From: Gammaproteobacteria bacterium
GTDB lineage: Bacteria > Pseudomonadota > Gammaproteobacteria > JAADJB01
DNA length: 64,000 bases
Direction of reading: 5' to 3'
Assembly: GCA_013151035.1 (NCBI GenBank)
Contig: JAADJB010000053.1
Location: forward strand, 5,939-69,938
The notes under the pieces are model-generated. The model did not search any database and was not told the origin of the DNA. It saw only the letters and a list, made by a program, of their open reading frames with translations. Position 1 is the first letter of the stretch. Each line of letters starts with the position of its first letter. Shown here in pieces: positions 42,646 through 51,989 of the stretch. Made by a program: the position numbers and the translations under genes.

Positions 42646-44853
42646 ATGAAACGCTATAACCACTTGTTATTATTTTGTATTTTATTGTCTGCAGAAACTT
42701 TAGCAGCAGCGGGGGACAACGGAGCAGGGATAGATCTCTGGCAAATATCCGGTAGTAATACTTTACGCTATGATTATTACAATAACTCTGGTGACATTGC
42801 GGCATCACCCTATCGTTTCAGTAATACACAGATTTACGATGAGTTTAATCTCAATTTCAAGCGGCAACTATCACCCTATAACCGGCTACAAGGCAATGTC
42901 AGTGGCTTATTTAATGATTCATTATATCGCAGCCGTTTTCAGGGTGGCAGTATAGAACGCTTCAGCTTGAAACAGGAAAATGGAGCAGTTAATCTGCCGT
43001 ACCGTGCCGAAGTCGGTGACTTATTTGCCTTTCAGAGTTTTCGTACCATCCAGCGTACTCTGAAGGGCGCACAGATTGAACTGCAACCTGATTTGGCTAC
43101 CGATACCCAACACTCTATCATAGTCTTTACCGGTAGTGCCTCAGCAGATTGGCGTGATATCAAATCTACGGATGGCTGGAGCAGTGGTATTTCCTGGTTA
43201 GCACAAGGTTCTGCCTGGGGCAAGCTTGCGGCCAATTTTCTCAACAATTACAAGAGCACAAATGCAACAACATTAACCGCTTCAACACAGCAGACGATAT
43301 ATAGCCTTGCCTACGAAAATCAGCCGCAGTGGTTTGGTCAAGCACTGACGCTTGAAGGAGAAGCGGGTTATTTTAATGGTGATCATGCTGACATTGCTGG
43401 TGTGGGTAGCGGCAAAGACAAGCAAGGCAGTGCGCTGTTCGCACAAATATCAGGCCGCCCTACTACATTGCCTGCACTGAATTACCGTCTTCGTTACGAA
43501 TCCTACGATCAGGATTATCGTCCTGATACCGCCTCGATTCAGCCAGACCGTCTCTCCAGAGAGGGTCATTTGTCCTGGCGTTTTAACAATGGCCTAACAT
43601 TACGCGGCCGACGGCAAAATTTTTATAGCAACAAGGGTACCGTCAACCCGCTGACAACCGATGTCTATGGCCTTAATCTTAGCGGGCCATTTTCAATTGG
43701 AAACGTATCCCCCCTGTCAGGCAATATTGATGCCTTCAAACAAACAGCAGAGAGTCGTAACCGTGCCACGATTACCGATACCCGAGTGGTCAATATAAAT
43801 GTCAGTCAAAGCCTGAGTCGGGATATTTCTATTCGCGGCGGATTTTTTTATTCGAATATCAATAACAAAGCTATTCCACAAAACCTCTCCATTACGCGAC
43901 AATATCTAACCGGTCTCAATTTCAAGGCTCAATGGCGGGGTTTCTCCGGCACTATATCTCCAGCATTTGTAATAAGGAGGTTGGATAACTCAGGCAAACG
44001 CACTAGCTGGGAGCGCAATCCCACCTTGAGCCTCAATGCCAGTCGTGGCCCACATACACTCTCATTTTCTCACGCGGTGCTGAGTCAGGGAGGAGCAGCC
44101 GCAGGCTTGGGGCAGTTAACTCGGACTAGTGGGATGAATTATCGCTATACACAAAAAAGCTATACTTTTGGGCTCGAAGGTAACTGGTATCAACGCAACC
44201 CCGATAGTCCCCTTAGCCGTAACACGGATGCCTGGCGTATTGGTGCTTACTGGACGTTAAACTTTGATAAACCAGTAAAGCAGGTCATCGCGGGGTCGTT
44301 AGCTGCGTCATCATCAGGAATGCGGGCTGTCGCACCATCATCACGACTAGCGCTTGATCTCACAAGACTGACACCAGGGATGATGGAAGGAGAGGCACGT
44401 AAGATCGCAATAAATAGTGATTTGGGTAAACCGACAAAACAACCGGGGCTATTGGTCTGGTTTAACCGCATTTTCCGTGATCTGGATCAAAGCCAACGAT
44501 TGGTCATACAACTGTTAAATAGTGAGCTCGCGCGTTCAGCGATTATTATTGATTTTGATGACGTGGGTGACAGTCAAAGTGTTGAACAAACCTTTGAACG
44601 AGTACGCCAGCAATTATTGTTGCGCTATGGTACTCCTGACTCATTTTTCGAGCAGGGAGATTTTACTGCGAACATAGCACTGGAATTATCTTCCGAGCGT
44701 TTTTATCGTAGCATGCAATGGGAAATAGCAGATGGTGTACTGCGCTTTGGCATACCACGTAGGCTGGATGGACAAGTACGGATGGAAATACAGTTTGCAC
44801 GTGAATTCCCGACTATTAAAGAGTCTCTATGGAGTCTGGAGGAATTACAATGA
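42646..44853 (+). CDS. exported hypothetical protein, probable outer-membrane beta-barrel with about 190-aa C-terminal extension
   Basis: Signal peptide MKRYNHLLLFCILLSAETLAAA. Long run of alternating amphipathic beta-strand-like segments rich in Y/R/N/G, with an internal OMP-like terminal-strand signature (RIGAYWTLNF) near residue 545, followed by a further non-barrel-like domain. Confidence 0.5.
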   Translation: MKRYNHLLLFCILLSAETLAAAGDNGAGIDLWQISGSNTLRYDYYNNSGDIAASPYRFSNTQIYDEFNLNFKRQLSPYNRLQGNVSGLFNDSLYRSRFQGGSIERFSLKQENGAVNLPYRAEVGDLFAFQSFRTIQRTLKGAQIELQPDLATDTQHSIIVFTGSASADWRDIKSTDGWSSGISWLAQGSAWGKLAANFLNNYKSTNATTLTASTQQTIYSLAYENQPQWFGQALTLEGEAGYFNGDHADIAGVGSGKDKQGSALFAQISGRPTTLPALNYRLRYESYDQDYRPDTASIQPDRLSREGHLSWRFNNGLTLRGRRQNFYSNKGTVNPLTTDVYGLNLSGPFSIGNVSPLSGNIDAFKQTAESRNRATITDTRVVNINVSQSLSRDISIRGGFFYSNINNKAIPQNLSITRQYLTGLNFKAQWRGFSGTISPAFVIRRLDNSGKRTSWERNPTLSLNASRGPHTLSFSHAVLSQGGAAAGLGQLTRTSGMNYRYTQKSYTFGLEGNWYQRNPDSPLSRNTDAWRIGAYWTLNFDKPVKQVIAGSLAASSSGMRAVAPSSRLALDLTRLTPGMMEGEARKIAINSDLGKPTKQPGLLVWFNRIFRDLDQSQRLVIQLLNSELARSAIIIDFDDVGDSQSVEQTFERVRQQLLLRYGTPDSFFEQGDFTANIALELSSERFYRSMQWEIADGVLRFGIPRRLDGQVRMEIQFAREFPTIKESLWSLEELQ

Positions 44854-47800
44854 ACGGGCGATTATCTGTAAATAAATGCGCGCAGCAGGTATTGATTGCG
44901 ATACTATTGTTACTGACCATCTCGATCGCTTTTATCGGCACTAGTATAGTTCAAGCTGCTGATTTCGCTGATGCGCCAGACTCTGACCTAAATAAGTGTC
45001 GCAAGTATTATCAGCCTAGCTGTGAATATCATTACCCTACTCTGGAAGTCAATAATGGTGCTCGTCATTTGAATACCCGTGCGGCATGGCTTGGCAACTC
45101 TGTTTCAGATGAAACAGCACCCAAATCAAGTGATGACGACGATTTTCTATCGACCCAGAAGATTTACAATGCCACATGGAATGGATCACTTTATATCAAT
45201 GTGCTGATTGATCACAACAGTGATGGCGACTGGGACGATCCCGGTGAATGGGTTGTTCAGAACAATAGCTATGACATTCCTAAGGGAAAATCACAAAGCA
45301 TCGGCATCGCTGGTCCGCCGCCGGGTAAGTGGTACCGAATCACCTTAACCGGAAGACCCGTAACCGCCTATACAGGCAAAGGCATTTTTTCAATTGGGGA
45401 AACCGAAGATTACTTGATTGGCGCCCAAAAGAAAAAGGGGGGGGAGAAGGACTCACTTCCGTTTCCACCACTGGAATTTTGTGGGGATGGCATTATCAAC
45501 CTTCCCGGTGAACAGTGTGATCCGCCCGGTGGCGGTTGTCCGGCTGGTCTGGCCTGCAACATAAACTGCCTGTGTGACGGTGAAGAGGGACTACCGCCTA
45601 TACCTGGTGCTTCTCCAGGTTCATCTTCTCCAGGCCTATCTTCTCCAGGCTCGGTTTCTCCAGATTCACTATTAGCACCTCAAAAACTGAAAGGACTAGA
45701 CCGTATCACTACCGGAAGCGGTCGGTGTCGATTACCTTGGCAAGGTGGCACAACCCCATGCGATGAGTGCATAAAAGGTCATGCGGGACAGAATTATGCC
45801 AAAGTATGTTATCAGCATGAGAATGAAATTGAAAAAAACCGTTTGCATGCTGAGGAACAGACGATAAAAATAAACCTACTCTATAATGCATACAATCATG
45901 AAAAAAATCGTTTAAAAAATAAAAACAGCGATCCTCTCAAGGGGATTGAATTACGAAACATCTATAAGAAATGGGCTAAAGAGAAACCATCTTACGATAG
46001 AAAGATTAAGGCATGGAAAAAAACCAAGGAGAATTGGAAGCAAGTAAAACCTGCTGTCATTGAAGACTCATTGGAAATGGCTCTCAAAAAATGCAAGGAT
46101 GAAGGGATTTGCGGCAACAGCAGTAAACAAGTTAAAACTGAAGAGCCTCTGCAAGAAGATGAACGCTGTACATCTCTGATCAAGCCCAAGACCTTTAAAA
46201 ACAACCTTGCACTGTTAAACGAAGCCAATCGAAATAACCTGGGAGCAGGAAAAGCAAGTAAGGTCTTAATGAATGGAATGATTGCGAAGGCAATGAATCC
46301 ATATTCTATTATTCTAGATGCAAAAAAGATTGGCAGCCGGTCACTAACTGCTGAATTTGATTCACCTGGGAAAAAAATAAAAACAAGTATCACCAAAATC
46401 AATGATTGTGATTCAGTTGTTTCCACAGGAATACGAAAAAAACATTATGAGTTTACTCTCATTATTGAAAAGTATGAAATTGATAAAACAATTAGTTTCT
46501 TTAATCCAACTGAAGCAATTATTAACATAGCTGATCTTGCTTCAGCAGCTACATCTATTCCCATACAATTAACCTGGATCAGCATAAATGGAGCTATGAA
46601 TGCTATTGATAAAGAATGGGCTGCGGGTGGATTTGAAGTCCTGGATTTTGCGTTTACAGCAGGGGGAGCTTTAGTTAAGGGAAGCCGTGCTGTTGCCGAA
46701 GGTGGAAAAGCTGTTGGTCATATTGGTTTGAAAACAATTAAGAAAGGATCTAAAACGGTAGTTAAATCGACTATCAAACAAAGGTTAAAAAGTGAATTAT
46801 CTTCAAGTGCCACTGATATTTTAACGCCAAAGGGTACGGGTAATAAAGAAAATGTTAATAACAAATCAATGTATATTGATCAGGTTAAATCTGATATAAA
46901 ATCCCGGCTTGATAAAAATCCACTGATCAATACCGTAAAGGCGGAAAAGCAGAGCATTTTGGGGCGGCTTAAACGAGGATTGCTAGGGGAACACTATATT
47001 CATCTTAAAGGAACGATAGAAATCCCTGTGGCTTATTGCATAAAGCTTAAAAACACATCTACTGAGTACAGCAGCGATATTATAACCAATTGTGAGAATA
47101 TCAAAGAACCTGTTCTGGAGGATACTATAGTAACAGGTGATGACAGCCTACCAACTGAAAGCGGTTCAAAAGACGTGAATGGCTTGAATGGTTTGTTTAA
47201 TATGCAGCGTATCAACCCGTGTCCTGCTTGTAGCAAAACTTATGCAGACTTTGCTGCTATACAGGCAAAAGCAAAACCACTAAAGGAAAAGATTATTCGC
47301 CAATTTGGTAGTGTTCGAGAGTGGCGAATAATGCTGGGGACAGCGGGTAAAATATTCGGCGGTTCTGCCGGTCAATTAAGGGAAAAAGCGATCAATTTGA
47401 AGAATGAAGTGGATTCGCTCAATAAACAATCAAACAAGACGCTTCTAAGTTTAACCCTATGCATGGGGAATTTATGTACTGGTACTAACAAAACCGCTTT
47501 AGAAGACCTGCCGATTGAAAGCGATTCAAATTGCCCTGATTGTGGAATTGAACTGGTGCAGGTTATAGCGGGTAGAGGGAATAACCCCTTGAGTCCGACA
47601 GACCCTGTTTCAGCGGGAACGACTAGTACCATTGTCGATACGCCCGCTACGGGTGGCGGCGGGGTTTCTGGCGACACGATACCGCCAGTCATTTCTGCGC
47701 CTGCCTCTATTACGGTAGCGGCAACGGATATGAATGGAATATCTGTGGCCAATGCAACCATTCAGGCTTTTCTTGCTGCGGCAACGGCGACAGATAATGT

Positions 47801-48638
47801 TGCTGTGGTAGGCTCGGTGACAAACAATGCACCACTGGTTTTTCCGGTGTTACCGAATATGCCCACAGGCAACACAACGAATGTGATTTTTTCTGCCGTC
47901 GATGCAGTAGGCAATATTGGTACCTCTACCAGTAGCGTGACTGTGGTGGATCAATCAGCACCTGGCCTGACCTTGCCAACATCAATTACCGTGACGGCAT
48001 CTTCTGGTGCTACAAGTGTTCCTGCTAGTAACGCCACTATAAGCACGTTTTTAAATGCTGCGCAAGCCCTTGATGACGTAGATGGCATGATAGCTGCACC
48101 TGCAGTGTCACCTCCAGCCAATTTCTCAGTAGGCACGACGACAGTGACCTTTAAAGCTACAGACGGCGCAGGAAATGTGCAAACAGGTACCCGTACGGTT
48201 ACCGTATTAGCATCGGCAGGATTGCCAGCGATAATAGATGGACGTTGGCAAATGACATGTGATTTGGCATTTGGTTCTGCAGCGGATGCCACTACTGTCA
48301 ATACATTGATGGGCACGCCAATGCCAAGCAATCCAATGTTGGTGATCACGGGGAACAGTAGCAATTTTGTAATAACCACTTTACCTCCAGGCGATTTTGC
48401 AGCAGGACCAGCGACAGAAAATCTTGCGACGACAGAAAATGATCTGATGCTGGGTTTTGCCAGTACCATAATATCCAGCAATGGTCATACCTTTAATGTT
48501 GGCATGGGAGAAACATGGACTTTCGATTTCCCTGTAGCGGGTCAACACGGACTACAATTATCATGGCAGATATTTACTCAAGCGCCTGACCCGATTATCA
48601 GCGTGCAGTACAATTGCAGCGGAAATAAAGCACCATGA
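44850..48638 (+). CDS. large exported surface protein: GEVED domain, Myxococcus-type Cys-rich repeat, Pro/Ser linker, Lys-rich helical region, two HYR-like repeats
   Basis: ATGA overlap with the upstream gene; N-terminal signal/anchor. DFADAPDSD...GARHL...DDDDF...IDHNSDGDWDDPGEW...WYRITL...GETEDYLIG fits the GEVED domain pattern. CGDGIINLPGEQCDPPGGGCPAGLACNINC fits the Myxococcus cysteine-rich repeat. Two ~85-aa repeats (TIPPVISAPASITVAATD... and LPTSITVTASSG...GTTTVTFKATDGAGNV) fit the HYR domain. Confidence 0.6.
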   Translation: MNGRLSVNKCAQQVLIAILLLLTISIAFIGTSIVQAADFADAPDSDLNKCRKYYQPSCEYHYPTLEVNNGARHLNTRAAWLGNSVSDETAPKSSDDDDFLSTQKIYNATWNGSLYINVLIDHNSDGDWDDPGEWVVQNNSYDIPKGKSQSIGIAGPPPGKWYRITLTGRPVTAYTGKGIFSIGETEDYLIGAQKKKGGEKDSLPFPPLEFCGDGIINLPGEQCDPPGGGCPAGLACNINCLCDGEEGLPPIPGASPGSSSPGLSSPGSVSPDSLLAPQKLKGLDRITTGSGRCRLPWQGGTTPCDECIKGHAGQNYAKVCYQHENEIEKNRLHAEEQTIKINLLYNAYNHEKNRLKNKNSDPLKGIELRNIYKKWAKEKPSYDRKIKAWKKTKENWKQVKPAVIEDSLEMALKKCKDEGICGNSSKQVKTEEPLQEDERCTSLIKPKTFKNNLALLNEANRNNLGAGKASKVLMNGMIAKAMNPYSIILDAKKIGSRSLTAEFDSPGKKIKTSITKINDCDSVVSTGIRKKHYEFTLIIEKYEIDKTISFFNPTEAIINIADLASAATSIPIQLTWISINGAMNAIDKEWAAGGFEVLDFAFTAGGALVKGSRAVAEGGKAVGHIGLKTIKKGSKTVVKSTIKQRLKSELSSSATDILTPKGTGNKENVNNKSMYIDQVKSDIKSRLDKNPLINTVKAEKQSILGRLKRGLLGEHYIHLKGTIEIPVAYCIKLKNTSTEYSSDIITNCENIKEPVLEDTIVTGDDSLPTESGSKDVNGLNGLFNMQRINPCPACSKTYADFAAIQAKAKPLKEKIIRQFGSVREWRIMLGTAGKIFGGSAGQLREKAINLKNEVDSLNKQSNKTLLSLTLCMGNLCTGTNKTALEDLPIESDSNCPDCGIELVQVIAGRGNNPLSPTDPVSAGTTSTIVDTPATGGGGVSGDTIPPVISAPASITVAATDMNGISVANATIQAFLAAATATDNVAVVGSVTNNAPLVFPVLPNMPTGNTTNVIFSAVDAVGNIGTSTSSVTVVDQSAPGLTLPTSITVTASSGATSVPASNATISTFLNAAQALDDVDGMIAAPAVSPPANFSVGTTTVTFKATDGAGNVQTGTRTVTVLASAGLPAIIDGRWQMTCDLAFGSAADATTVNTLMGTPMPSNPMLVITGNSSNFVITTLPPGDFAAGPATENLATTENDLMLGFASTIISSNGHTFNVGMGETWTFDFPVAGQHGLQLSWQIFTQAPDPIISVQYNCSGNKAP

Positions 48639-49162
48639 AGATCATTTTTGTAAGATATTGCATGGTATGCCTATTGGCAATAGTGGCCGGGGCTAGTCCG
48701 GGACTTAACCTGAAGGCGAGTGAATTTCGCGCATTTAGCCTGATTCGTTCACCATCCAGTGAACGTAGCAACCTGGTTTCGCAGTCTTCAGTTGCGTTAA
48801 AAACTGATATTCAGGTTGTATCAAGCAAGATGGTGCAGGATGCTGTAAGCAAGCTGGTTGCAGCCTGGAATAGCAATGGCCTAAGTACAATAGTCACTGA
48901 TAGCTTTATTGATAAATCTCGTTTGCTGGATTCTGTTAATAGTCAGATACCCCGCGATGCACAATTACGCGTGCTTGCCATTCAAAATACACGCACCCTT
49001 AATCAACATGTAGCTGATTCACCGAGTGGCAAGCTCCTGGTGAGTTTGGTTTCTACAACTTTGCGTACACAACTTGAGTTTAATGATCCTGCTCAGGGTT
49101 TTCAACGTCGGGAAGGGACAAATGAATATATTCTGCGTATTAAGCAGCGATACACGCCCTGA
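48635..49162 (+). CDS. small secreted hypothetical protein (175 aa)
   Basis: ATGA overlap with the upstream gene; signal peptide MKIIFVRYCMVCLLAIVAGASPG; no recognisable family. Confidence 0.5.
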   Translation: MKIIFVRYCMVCLLAIVAGASPGLNLKASEFRAFSLIRSPSSERSNLVSQSSVALKTDIQVVSSKMVQDAVSKLVAAWNSNGLSTIVTDSFIDKSRLLDSVNSQIPRDAQLRVLAIQNTRTLNQHVADSPSGKLLVSLVSTTLRTQLEFNDPAQGFQRREGTNEYILRIKQRYTP

Positions 49163-49245
49163 CTACACTACCCGAATCCACCCTACAAGGATGCATTGCA
49201 CAGCCTTGCAGAATTTTCAGTCAATCGATCTTATTAAAAACGATA
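49149..49245 (+). repeat. direct repeat B, a relic ispB 3-prime end; right boundary of the islet
   Basis: Apart from one frameshift, the relic translates as IHALTTLPES / PYKDALHSLAEFSVNRSY*, against IHALTTLPESPYKDALHTLAEFSVHRSY* at the end of the real IspB. The stop codon of the convergent TonB-dependent receptor lies inside the relic. Confidence 0.75.
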
Positions 49246-51237
49246 AGCGGCGTTTATATATACATAACGCCCCGGCTCATTAATCAACATCACATCACCC
49301 GTAGCATCCGCTAACAGGGTCAAATCCTTATAGGTATTGGTTGTACTATAGGTCTTGTTCATCACATTATCGATCCCCAGAGTCAGGGCAAGATGCCTAC
49401 TCAATGTATGCTGCAATTTCAGATTTAATACAGCATAGGAATCAATCGCCTGCTCTCCATTATCGACATCGAAATACCTCCATTCATCCATAGCCACCAA
49501 CTCAATTATTGCACTACTTCTCAATGCATAATCATAATTCAAGGTAAGATTAACCTTTAACGGAGGGATCTCGGCAAGATCTGTATCTGTCTGCCCCGTC
49601 AGTGTCTGGTTCTTCTGTCCACGCTGCCAGGCAAGACCAAAATCCAGATAAACCTCGTCATTAATAAACCAGGAACCACGAACATCAAGACCATAAATGG
49701 TGGCATCAACATTTTCAAAATTATTACTGGCATTACCGGCGTTGTAATAGATGAAGTCATTCAACCAGCTATGAAACAGCCTGACCTTAAGAGTTAAATC
49801 CTGGTAGTTCTTCTCTATACCAAAATCAAGCTCGGTATTGGTTGTTTTATTCAATGTAGGTGTACCAACGGTTACATTCATCATTGAACGAAAATAGAGC
49901 TCTCTGGCATCCGGTACGCGGGAGGCCCTGCCAATACCAGAAAAATACCGCGTACTACTATCAGGCTGATATGAAGTAAAGACAAAGGCACTCAATCCAT
50001 CATAATCCCTTGATGAATGCACACCGGTTTGAGGGACAATCGAGGTATTATCATAACGCACACCAAGCTTCGTACTCAGGCTGAAGTATCTCTTCTCAAT
50101 CTCGGCAAATACGGCTCTGTTTCCGGTATTGACATCATCAATACTCTTTCTACCCGTTATACCCGCCTTGGTACCCTTTCCGATATAGGTTCCATCCCAG
50201 TTTCGCAGGCTGGTATCCAGCCCGACAACAATCCGGGTATCCTTATCAAGAACAAACTTGTTACTGATCTTTAATCCTCTCATATCACTTTCCAGAGAAT
50301 TAGCCAATTCATCAACAGAGTTAATACCTGATGCCATTCTATAAAAAGTGGACATCGGATGTTCGACCGTTGACCGATAGATCTGTATATCAAGTGAACG
50401 GGAATAAACCCCCAGGTTCCTGATTGAATAATCCAGATCCAGCATATCTGAGTTATCATAAAGTGCATCCATCTTGCTGGAGGGATAAAGCACATTATCA
50501 CTACGATTGGCGGTATAACTCAACTTCAGATCCTGATCTTCAGTCATATCCAGATATAACTTACCCATAACAACCTGCTTCTTATAGGCATCCATACCAG
50601 CATACTGTGCCTGATAGCGTGGATTCATACCCGCCATTGCGGTAGGATTGAGATGACTAATCTGATCAGAAAAATTATTACCATCGCCGTCCTCGTACTG
50701 CTCACTGGTCTCCCTGGACATTCCCAGCAAGACCCTGGCCTTGTCATTACCACCACTCACCGTCGCTGATAATTTCCGGTAATCCCAACTCCCTGCATTC
50801 AAACTCACCTCACCCTTAAAGGCCTGTGAAGGGTTTCTGGTACTAATCCTTACCGCACCACTCAAAGTACCTGAGTTTTCCACATCATAAGGACCTTCAA
50901 TAATCTCGATACCATCAATTGTATTATTCAGTACATAAGAGATCGGTGGATCCATTCGATTAGGACCAGCCCCATAGATCCTGGCACCATCAATCAGGAC
51001 ATTGATATTGTCCTTTTTCTGCCCACGCAAAATAATATCATTAGCGATCCCGCTTCTACGCACCAGTGATATACCAGGAAGGTTCCGACTCAGGGCCTCA
51101 GCCAGATCTGCCGATTTCACCTCCTCGCCACTCACATCAGCGAGTCTTGTACTCTCAACCATGATAGTTGCTTCACCCATACCGGCTGCCTGTAACTCAA
51201 TCAGCCACAATAATAATAGATAGATACCTTTTTTCAT
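49234..51237 (-). CDS. TonB-dependent outer-membrane receptor
   Basis: 667 aa. Signal peptide; plug domain with a TonB-box-like region; 22-strand barrel pattern; C-terminal ...YINAAYRF ending in aromatic-x-F. Confidence 0.85.
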   Translation of the reverse strand: MKKGIYLLLLWLIELQAAGMGEATIMVESTRLADVSGEEVKSADLAEALSRNLPGISLVRRSGIANDIILRGQKKDNINVLIDGARIYGAGPNRMDPPISYVLNNTIDGIEIIEGPYDVENSGTLSGAVRISTRNPSQAFKGEVSLNAGSWDYRKLSATVSGGNDKARVLLGMSRETSEQYEDGDGNNFSDQISHLNPTAMAGMNPRYQAQYAGMDAYKKQVVMGKLYLDMTEDQDLKLSYTANRSDNVLYPSSKMDALYDNSDMLDLDYSIRNLGVYSRSLDIQIYRSTVEHPMSTFYRMASGINSVDELANSLESDMRGLKISNKFVLDKDTRIVVGLDTSLRNWDGTYIGKGTKAGITGRKSIDDVNTGNRAVFAEIEKRYFSLSTKLGVRYDNTSIVPQTGVHSSRDYDGLSAFVFTSYQPDSSTRYFSGIGRASRVPDARELYFRSMMNVTVGTPTLNKTTNTELDFGIEKNYQDLTLKVRLFHSWLNDFIYYNAGNASNNFENVDATIYGLDVRGSWFINDEVYLDFGLAWQRGQKNQTLTGQTDTDLAEIPPLKVNLTLNYDYALRSSAIIELVAMDEWRYFDVDNGEQAIDSYAVLNLKLQHTLSRHLALTLGIDNVMNKTYSTTNTYKDLTLLADATGDVMLINEPGRYVYINAAYRF

Positions 51238-51272
51238 TCAAACATTCCCCTTTATAACAAACCAGCCTCAAT

Positions 51273-51989
51273 TCAACTCAATTCAAAAATCATGGAATAA
51301 TTAACCAATACCGGTACCTCAATACTCTCGGGAGGCCTGGGAAATGGAGATGACTGTGTAACCGCATCCCCTGCAGCAGAACGCAATACTGAGTACCGAC
51401 CATCAACCAGCAGATCCTTTATGCTGCCATCCTCCATTAACCGGAAAGACACCTTGACTACATCCTCATAACCCCGTTTCCGCGCACTATGCGGGTAATA
51501 TCTGGCTGACTCAATAATGCGTAATATCGAAGCAAGGTAGACTTCCCTCATCTCATCACGAAAATCAGTCTGACTCACATCATCAAGCTCTACCATTGAC
51601 TCCATTGCAGTCAATAGTGGTGCTGCCACTGCCCGTTCAACAACAGGCTCCGCTAACTCTTCAGGTTCAGGAATCCATGACTGTTGCTGATCCATCGGTA
51701 CAAATACCTCAACAGGTACTAATTCAACCTGCTCCTGTATAGAACCACCTATCTTTTTATGCACAGGTATTACCGGGGCAGGTATCACGGGAGCAGGTAC
51801 TGACTCCATAACACTTATTGCCTGCATTCGTGGCTGTAGCATAATATCCAGTCGTACTCCGTAATCGGGGATTGACTTCGATACAGTGGAAGAAAAATAA
51901 AAGAACACCAATAAATGAATAAGCAACGATGTAACCATTGCCAAATCCCAGGGTTTGTCTCTCACAGCTTGAAAAACATGTACATTCAT
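51273..51989 (-). CDS. TonB-family energy transducer (C-terminal TonB domain)
   Basis: N-terminal TM anchor, Pro-rich spacer (PAPVIPAPVIPV) and a C-terminal TonB-like domain (YPHSARKRGYEDVVKVSFRLMEDGSI...). No exbBD adjacent. Confidence 0.7.
   Translation of the reverse strand: MNVHVFQAVRDKPWDLAMVTSLLIHLLVFFYFSSTVSKSIPDYGVRLDIMLQPRMQAISVMESVPAPVIPAPVIPVHKKIGGSIQEQVELVPVEVFVPMDQQQSWIPEPEELAEPVVERAVAAPLLTAMESMVELDDVSQTDFRDEMREVYLASILRIIESARYYPHSARKRGYEDVVKVSFRLMEDGSIKDLLVDGRYSVLRSAAGDAVTQSSPFPRPPESIEVPVLVNYSMIFELS

Follow-up and report, generated by a model that had tools for sequence, protein, structure and literature searches.

Type II secretion, type V secretion, the chaperone-usher pathway, curli, type IX secretion and Slam are the known outer-membrane routes for proteins exported by Sec. 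Here we describe a gene for an outer-membrane protein of 735 amino acids (aa), located at positions 42646–44853 on the + strand of a 64,000-nucleotide stretch of gammaproteobacterial DNA (the window; contig JAADJB010000053.1 of assembly GCA_013151035.1, positions 5,939 to 69,938), together with the operon to which it belongs. The protein is predicted to form a 26-strand beta-barrel followed by an additional C-terminal domain (CTD), and its gene is accompanied by genes for a large mosaic exported protein, hereafter called the cargo, and for a small secreted protein with a putative NTF2-like fold. On balance, this trio probably constitutes a dedicated Sec-dependent outer-membrane module for export or anchoring, without homology to usher, TpsB, Slam, intimin, LptD or MtrB; its function, including the final location of the cargo, we infer from the genes, their topology and their linkage. 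Both the barrel family and the module as a whole appear to be unannotated and unrelated to the known systems.

In its logic the module seems closest to chaperone-usher and two-partner secretion, in strand number to LptD and MtrB, and it appears to be a member of none of them. With the chaperone-usher pathway it would share Sec-exported substrates, a large outer-membrane barrel with one or more post-barrel periplasmic domains and an internal beta-signal, a small dedicated periplasmic partner, a strand-like recognition element on the substrate, and the arrangement in one operon. Unlike the ushers, which have 24 strands, the barrel has 26, and it carries neither an inserted plug nor an N-terminal usher domain; the partner is predicted to be NTF2-like and not of Ig fold, and, in place of polymerising pilins, each substrate is one mosaic protein that may reach 1700 aa. 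No Usher, PapC_N or PapC_C signal was detected by Pfam at E≤1 in any of 28 homologues of the barrel protein. As in two-partner secretion (type Vb), a dedicated gene for an outer-membrane barrel is linked to that of a very large adhesin- or toxin-like protein exported by Sec; recognition via a conserved element of the cargo, as proposed for the module, is also common to both. On the other hand, the module has no POTRA domain and no 16-strand Omp85 barrel (Pfam gave no POTRA, Omp85 or ShlB match in the barrel proteins and no TPS match in 33 cargo proteins), its putative cargo signal is a C-proximal motif of about 26 aa rather than an N-terminal TPS domain, and it has an obligatory third component, the putatively NTF2-like protein.

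Regarding the 26-strand systems, LptD–LptE resembles the module in strand number, in possessing a partner of about 140–170 aa that could plug the lumen, and in the need for lumen occlusion. It differs in that the module shows no LptD/OstA homology (Pfam, NCBIfam) and no N-terminal beta-jellyroll, has a predicted NTF2-like partner instead of a conserved lipoprotein, encodes in its operon a large exported protein instead of lipopolysaccharide transport, and belongs to a barrel family that is non-essential and patchily distributed. MtrB/MtrA/MtrC likewise combine 26 strands with a three-part logic of barrel, periplasmic partner and surface protein, and the 26-strand MtrB gave the best template-modelling (TM) scores with our barrel model in Foldseek (0.41/0.46); however, no MtrB_PioB Pfam signal and no CxxCH motif in the partners were found, and the module barrel has the added CTD. 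Slam (type XI) and the inverse autotransporters (type Ve) also dedicate an outer-membrane barrel to the surface display of specific proteins, as we propose here, and the inverse autotransporters share with some members of the barrel family an N-terminal peptidoglycan-binding domain (LysM on intimins, SPOR or AMIN in the family). Unlike Slam, the module has no DUF560 or TPR domain and is not 14-stranded, and no lipobox was present in the first 45 residues of the cargo; unlike an inverse autotransporter, it has 26 strands and not 12, its cargo is on a separate chain, and its CTD would lie on the periplasmic side and not form an extracellular passenger.

The 735-aa protein begins with MKRYNHLLLFCILLSAETLAAA|GD, which follows the n-h-c pattern: its n-region is basic, its core hydrophobic, and an AxA-like site comes next. 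A cleavable Sec-type signal peptide (residues 1 to ~22, 42646–42711) is predicted here. In an AlphaFold2 model computed with the alignment of the 28 homologues (mean predicted local distance difference test score (pLDDT) 82.5, predicted TM-score 0.79), residues 1–26 were of low confidence and helical, with the helix at residues 6–21, and 26 transmembrane beta strands were assigned by DSSP in residues 32–542 (42739–44271). All of the connecting loops were of 14 residues or fewer, and no plug was inserted between strands. Strand 26, which closes the barrel, ends in the beta-signal-like RIGAYWTLNF (residues 531–540, 44236–44265), of which GAYWTLNF forms the close of the strand; the family consensus at this position is RxGAFWTxxFDKP, F540 being F or L family-wide. 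The chain then continues for 193 residues, first as a disordered linker (residues 543–565, 44272–44340; pLDDT <50 for 546–565) that varies in length and sequence in the alignment, and then as the CTD, an alpha/beta domain of about 170 aa (residues 566–735, 44341–44850) with invariant columns, which was confidently folded from about 566 to 720 (pLDDT 80–93).

Two-barrel outer-membrane proteins such as GfcD exist (PMC11494523), and the connectivity of the predicted strands was evaluated by mean-field direct-coupling analysis of an alignment of 207 family sequences (effective number 195). All 25 sequential hairpins of the AlphaFold2 model gave antiparallel ladder scores of 0.11–0.46, while the background of 299 non-adjacent strand pairs had a mean of 0.073, a standard deviation of 0.026 and a maximum of 0.195. 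The pair of strand 1 and strand 26 scored 0.387, which was the third highest value overall and exceeded all 299 non-adjacent pairs, and its register (43–533, 36–540, 34–542) supplied 3 of the top 100 couplings. These values support one closed barrel of 26 strands, in which RIGAYWTLNF lies on the closing strand, and because strand 1 coevolves with strand 26, the residues after strand 26 are a true appendage. A GfcD-like two-barrel architecture was ruled out by the same coevolution, alternative closures (e.g. strands 12–14) being at background. A preliminary description of the gene, made from the DNA sequence, had read the ~500-aa strand region as a barrel; with the 26 modelled strands and the coevolving closure this region is a real barrel and not a soluble periplasmic fold, and the signal peptide and the RIGAYWTLNF terminal-strand signal with the protein continuing beyond it, both described there, were likewise recovered. 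By standard barrel geometry, the lumen of the 26-strand barrel would measure about 3–4 nm and need some occupant, since it is wide, short-looped and without an inserted plug. Invariant charged residues with i/i+2 spacing in mid-strand (R137/K140/E145, E239, R281/R283/E285, R322/Q324 and R517) would line this lumen as a conserved ring.

The CTD was present in essentially all family members in the profile search described below, and Q617, R618, W692, R700, G702, P704, R706, R712 and W729 are invariant in it. Its family alignment showed no conserved set of Ser, His and Cys, and comparison with Pfam and PDB sequences gave no match, the OmpA peptidoglycan-binding domain included. Homology of the CTD to the small protein of the operon was considered and rejected (hhalign probability 0.35%). 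As for the topology, SPOR and AMIN are periplasmic peptidoglycan-binding domains; SPOR is found at the N-terminus of 4 of the 28 homologues, with SPOR repeats in P0029, and an N-terminal AMIN domain is found on the member P0152 (E=7.5e-15). Since some members carry these N-terminal fusions, the N-terminus of the barrel is periplasmic, and therefore, with an even number of strands, the CTD must be on the periplasmic side or folded back into the lumen and is not a surface domain.

The 28 full-length homologues were obtained by a word-indexed search with the barrel protein, whereas an exhaustive profile search over 1.84 billion cluster representatives (clusters at 50% identity) retrieved 521 representatives at E≤1e-3, 360 of them at E≤1e-30. 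Nearly all of the 521 are 700–760 aa long and match the whole profile including the CTD, and the family thus looks coherent in architecture and not like a chance open reading frame (ORF). Scans against Pfam and NCBIfam at E≤1 gave no match for the window barrel protein and nothing but SPOR on four members for the 28 homologues, and a PDB sequence search was empty. Foldseek against the PDB with the barrel model returned generic barrels only, the lowest E-values belonging to the FimD and PapC ushers (2e-7) with TM-scores of 0.24–0.33. The absence of a POTRA/TpsB, Slam or intimin signature, pointed out in the preliminary description, is thereby confirmed, and the clear homology to a known family that it had named as counter-evidence did not emerge from Pfam, NCBIfam or PDB sequences. 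No description of such a module came up in the literature, which was searched for type XII secretion, for 26-stranded barrels and for NTF2-like proteins in connection with outer-membrane secretion. Because members of the barrel family occur in Mariprofundus and Gallionella, we also compared the sfz/sfb stalk-formation cluster of Zetaproteobacteria and Gallionellaceae, which proved to be unrelated (Sfz proteins are glycosyltransferase, GH10 and SH3-CotH proteins). The carriers are Gamma-, Alpha-, Beta- (Gallionella) and Zetaproteobacteria and Desulfobacterota, together with a few metagenome-assembled genomes (MAGs) labelled Victivallales or Planctomycetes; Inquilinus sp. CAU 1745 was the sole isolate among the carriers examined.

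In the window, a GGAGGA ribosome-binding site (44838–44843) and an ATGA stop/start overlap (44850–44853), both on the + strand within 44838–44853, join the barrel gene to the cargo gene (44850–48638, + strand), and the two genes appear to be translationally coupled through this overlap. A second ATGA overlap (48635–48638) couples the cargo gene to a third gene, which encodes the 175-aa secreted partner (48635–49162, + strand). The first overlap had already been recognised in the preliminary description, where the downstream protein was given as 1263 aa; the large coupled protein is indeed present, its length being 1262 aa from the ATGA start (1269 aa from an upstream ATG at 44829), and the third coupled gene had not been linked to the barrel.

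The organization of the locus was then compared over 47 loci, taken from one genome per species, of which 43 had a complete barrel gene. A hidden Markov model (HMM) of the small protein found a homologue in 41 of these 43 loci, the two exceptions having less than 2.4 kb of flank, and in every one of the 22 loci whose flanks reached 4 kb or more on each side. In 32 loci the small-protein gene immediately preceded the barrel gene, and the two mostly overlapped by 4 bp. The small NTF2-like protein is the most faithful partner of the barrel gene. The commonest gene order was large protein, small protein and barrel, of which the window order of barrel, large and small, common to L003, L007, L008 and L016, is a cyclic permutation. 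A six-gene version (L014, L015, L044 and L055) consists of the small protein, proteins of ~250, ~950 and ~1000 aa, a ~250-aa protein with the cargo motif described below, and the barrel, so that the motif is carried there by a standalone secreted protein of ~250 aa adjoining the barrel gene; the ~950–1000-aa proteins have their homologous counterparts in internal stretches of the fused cargo proteins of other loci. In a MAG labelled Victivallales (L036:574-3360, = P0107, 871 aa), the small protein, with its signal peptide, is fused N-terminally to the barrel, which could be Rosetta-stone-type support for association on the periplasmic side, and could also be an assembly or frameshift artefact. 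An apparent fusion of cargo and small protein at L041 was discarded as an artefact of ORF extension in high-GC DNA. Other secretion genes were not present in these operons at the loci examined. The linkage of the barrel to a large exported neighbour is conserved over more than 40 loci from several phyla, and such conserved linkage is the strongest computational support obtainable for a hypothesis of this kind. The novel export/anchoring pair suggested in the preliminary description thus stands as far as conserved linkage and the absence of a known exporter family are concerned, while the unit is a trio and not a pair, and export is what we infer for it.

Members of the small-protein family have ~165–175 aa with a signal peptide, giving a secreted form of ~140 aa. 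In the window protein, the mature form starts with a flexible tail (residues 29–62, 48719–48820; pLDDT 49–60), which is followed by the predicted NTF2-like domain (residues 63–172, 48821–49150; pLDDT 83–97). The tail, of ~35 residues, opens with a conserved xEFRxxxxIxxP, in which R32 is invariant and I37 and P40 are nearly so, and the domain consists of three helices and three long bent strands in the AlphaFold2 model. Its top Foldseek matches were all NTF2-like (the ARC6/PARC6 intermembrane-space domain, the Tim44-like mL45 and the CaMKII hub) and were weak, with E-values of 1.6e-3 to 0.1 and TM-scores of 0.33–0.45. Sequence-family searches including Pfam gave no match, and the family alignment contained no conserved Cys. 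The ARC6/PARC6 domains bind the terminal peptide of a partner, which we treat as an analogy and not as evidence.

The cargo proteins are mosaics. Across the loci they range from 250 to 1700 aa, all with N-terminal hydrophobic signal-like segments, and all-against-all BLAST showed shuffled common modules and several alternative types of C-terminal domain. The window cargo is composed of a predicted signal peptide (cleavage near VQA|AD), a GEVED domain (cargo residues 115–190, 45192–45419; Pfam PF20009, E=9.1e-5, narrowly below the curated cutoff), a Cys-rich segment, Lys/Glu-rich helical segments, a motif (see below), HYR-like repeats and a C-terminal beta-rich domain. Among the repeats, a HYR domain was assigned by Pfam at cargo residues 1034–1119 (47949–48206; PF02494, E=4.5e-6), and a second HYR-like repeat lies upstream of it; internal repeats were seen against L007/L008. 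By Pfam, HYR was found in only 3 of 33 cargo proteins and GEVED in only one, so the co-occurrence of the barrel with GEVED/HYR proteins, put forward in the preliminary description, failed to appear, and these domains are incidental to the window cargo. The Inquilinus cargo protein contains Big_9 and cadherin repeats. In L037:5420-9382, cargo residues 757–827 match Anthrax_toxA (a lethal-factor-like segment, E=1.2e-21), which hints that some payloads are toxin-like; the 62%-identical protein of L050 probably has this segment, too. Long Lys/Glu/Leu-rich helical stretches with ATG16/CENP-F-type coiled-coil matches were also found in the large proteins. CxxCH motifs were entirely absent from the window partners and from all 43 collected large proteins, and the partners likewise showed no lipobox.

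It is a short GNNP...DP motif, and not HYR or GEVED, that ties the cargo to the barrel. This cargo-wide motif, located near the C-terminal part, starts with a strand-like [VI]E[LIV]xxVxxxx, often with a Cys pair at its beginning, and proceeds to GNNP[FY]xxxDP; it is acidic, and behind it come a linker rich in Gly, Ser and Thr and then a terminal domain of 75–350 aa (up to ~770 aa in L007 and L008). In the window it reads CPDCGIELVQVIAGRGNNPLSPTDPV (cargo residues 895–920, 47532–47609), as defined by the alignment of the 33 cargo proteins and matched by the motif HMM with an independent E-value (iE) of 6e-9. When the ORFs of all fetched loci and the whole window (3815 ORFs, 658,000 aa) were searched, the motif HMM gave 37 matches (iE<0.05), all but one of which were in cluster genes.

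Some other properties of the cargo genes and of the neighbourhood are recorded here. The Cys-rich stretch of the window cargo, FCGDGIINLPGEQCDPPGGGCPAGLACNINCLCDG (45440–45600, cargo residues ~198–250), resembles the cysteine-rich repeats of myxobacterial surface proteins and is followed by a Pro/Ser-rich linker. The G+C content of positions 46001–48000, covering the central and 3' parts of the cargo gene, was 0.415 compared to 0.45–0.49 in flanking housekeeping genes, consistent with a mosaic or recently exchanged gene. A Cys-rich domain of ~70 aa (…VIPYGGF…DHYHS…C…DPDPGGCGFG…CPWP; e.g. L001:8646-8870) recurs at the C-terminus in L001, L005, L010, L013, L022, L023, L026, L028, L031, L040, L043 and L052, and is one of at least three alternative types of C-terminal domain after the motif. 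In L005:7128-9494 (cargo residues ~300–450 and ~640–680), four to five copies of an unannotated repeat of ~45 aa with four Cys (C…P.CE.NC…C.F.Y.T..GK.C..C), separated by poly-Pro runs, lie upstream of the motif. A module of ~270 aa shared by L001:7368-8240 and parts of L027, L052, L014, L015 and L044 has kinase-fold-like motifs (GEGASSKAYEV...VVKV...DNKPDN...VDPGG); the kinase-like reading, which found no counterpart among Pfam or PDB sequences and comes from reading the residues by eye, was not retained. Downstream of the trio and convergent with it, positions 49234–51989 (− strand) encode a 667-aa TonB-dependent-receptor-like protein and a 238-aa protein with a TonB-like C-terminus; these neighbours are not conserved beside the module elsewhere and are probably unrelated to it.

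In the mechanism that we propose, Sec would export the cargo to the periplasm, where the NTF2-like protein or the Arg-rich CTD, or both, would recognise the module with the acidic motif. The barrel would then serve as a conduit and/or socket, passing the cargo to the cell surface or holding it there, while the invariant ring of charges in the lumen would contact whichever partner occupies the barrel, and the SPOR/AMIN domains would fix some versions to peptidoglycan. Export or anchoring is favoured because the payload domains are of extracellular type, no other exporter is encoded in the operons, and a simple anchor would not need so large a barrel. We can only tentatively go further and regard the trio as an unrecognised type of Sec-dependent outer-membrane secretion or surface-display system, with a 26-strand translocon that has an Arg-rich domain on its periplasmic side, an NTF2-like adaptor in the periplasm and the C-proximal 'GNNP...DP' element as its signal for export or anchoring; with the same reserve, its payloads may be described as mosaic proteins resembling adhesins, toxins and enzymes, and its carriers as Gamma-, Alpha-, Beta- and Zetaproteobacteria, Desulfobacterota and other diderms. 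The GNNP...DP signal might also be an Asn-Pro self-processing site.

Several observations weigh against an export or anchoring role. The separate large proteins and the separate motif protein of the six-gene loci fit a stable multi-subunit complex at least equally well, and the long coiled-coil-like segments of the cargo proteins would also suit a structural protein that spans the periplasm. At L054 (JACPCR010000063.1, a Planctomycetes-labelled MAG), a 252-aa motif protein and the small NTF2-like protein adjoin a 1972-aa protein, and no barrel gene was present over a distance of 10 kb; it may lie in another part of this genome, or the two proteins may have a different use in this lineage. As almost every member derives from a MAG, some fusions or absences may be assembly artefacts. 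Finally, coevolution between the CTD and the barrel was noisy, 21 of the top 25 inter-domain pairs touching barrel residues 300–500 at all wall depths. The first two of these observations, as well as the SPOR and AMIN domains on some barrels, would be explained by an envelope-spanning tether, in which a peptidoglycan-anchored barrel and coiled-coil-rich proteins that stay in the periplasm connect the outer membrane with the wall and possibly also with the inner membrane, and nothing is secreted. We consider such a tether rather unlikely, as HYR, GEVED, Big_9, cadherin and the toxin-like domain are typical of extracellular proteins, the extreme mosaicism and the 250–1700-aa size range would be unusual in a structural spacer, and a barrel of 26 strands is far bigger than an anchor requires.

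The likeness to MtrB brings in a surface docking socket, in which the barrel is plugged by the CTD or the NTF2-like protein and the large protein crosses by another route (e.g. type II) and binds from outside, like MtrC on MtrAB. Such a socket would agree with the strand number and the best structural match, with a barrel that has to be occupied and brings no plug within its own strands, and with the occurrence of the conserved module as a small motif protein by itself. However, no type II or other exporter genes are linked to the cluster, none of the partners has haem motifs, and the tight translational coupling together with a periplasmic accessory protein suggests assembly from the periplasmic side, so that this arrangement is unlikely. 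If the barrel instead were a channel for a non-protein substrate, such as a porin or a polysaccharide or lipid exporter like LptD, GfcD or BcsC, its neighbours would be accessory or unrelated, and nothing would account for why a motif-bearing protein accompanies it so strictly; genes for glycosyltransferases, ABC, Wza or Lpt proteins were not found in the clusters, no Pfam similarity to LptD, OstA, BcsC, AlgE, Wzi or YjbH was detected, and the GfcD-like form conflicts with the coevolution of strands 1 and 26. Despite the large size and short loops of the barrel, and despite LptD likewise having 26 strands with a partner of ~170 aa inside, we think that a channel of this sort is very improbable. 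Least credible of all is the reading that the protein has diverged far from one of the known exporter families (usher, TpsB/Omp85, Slam or inverse autotransporter) to which it belongs. The ushers FimD and PapC did yield the lowest Foldseek E-values, and ushers, too, have periplasmic domains after the barrel, but their TM-scores were low, the strands number 26 and not 24, 16, 14 or 12 with no plug inserted, and the partner looks NTF2-like and not like an Ig-fold PapD chaperone. Moreover, none of the 28 members gave a Pfam signal of an exporter family even at E≤1, and POTRA, TPS, DUF560 and LysM domains were all missing.

If confirmed, the module, conserved and widespread and with no homology of its three parts to the routes named at the outset, would represent a new path of export over the outer membrane, or failing that a new type of protein complex in it. 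If true, the export reading would explain how many large 'orphan' adhesin- and toxin-like proteins of uncultured marine, hydrothermal and groundwater bacteria arrive at the surface, and the short common motif would offer a simple handle for finding substrates in genomes. The cultured carrier Inquilinus sp. CAU 1745 makes the export idea directly testable. Even if the role of the module is structural and not secretory, the family fills a large class of 26-strand barrels that has been without annotation.

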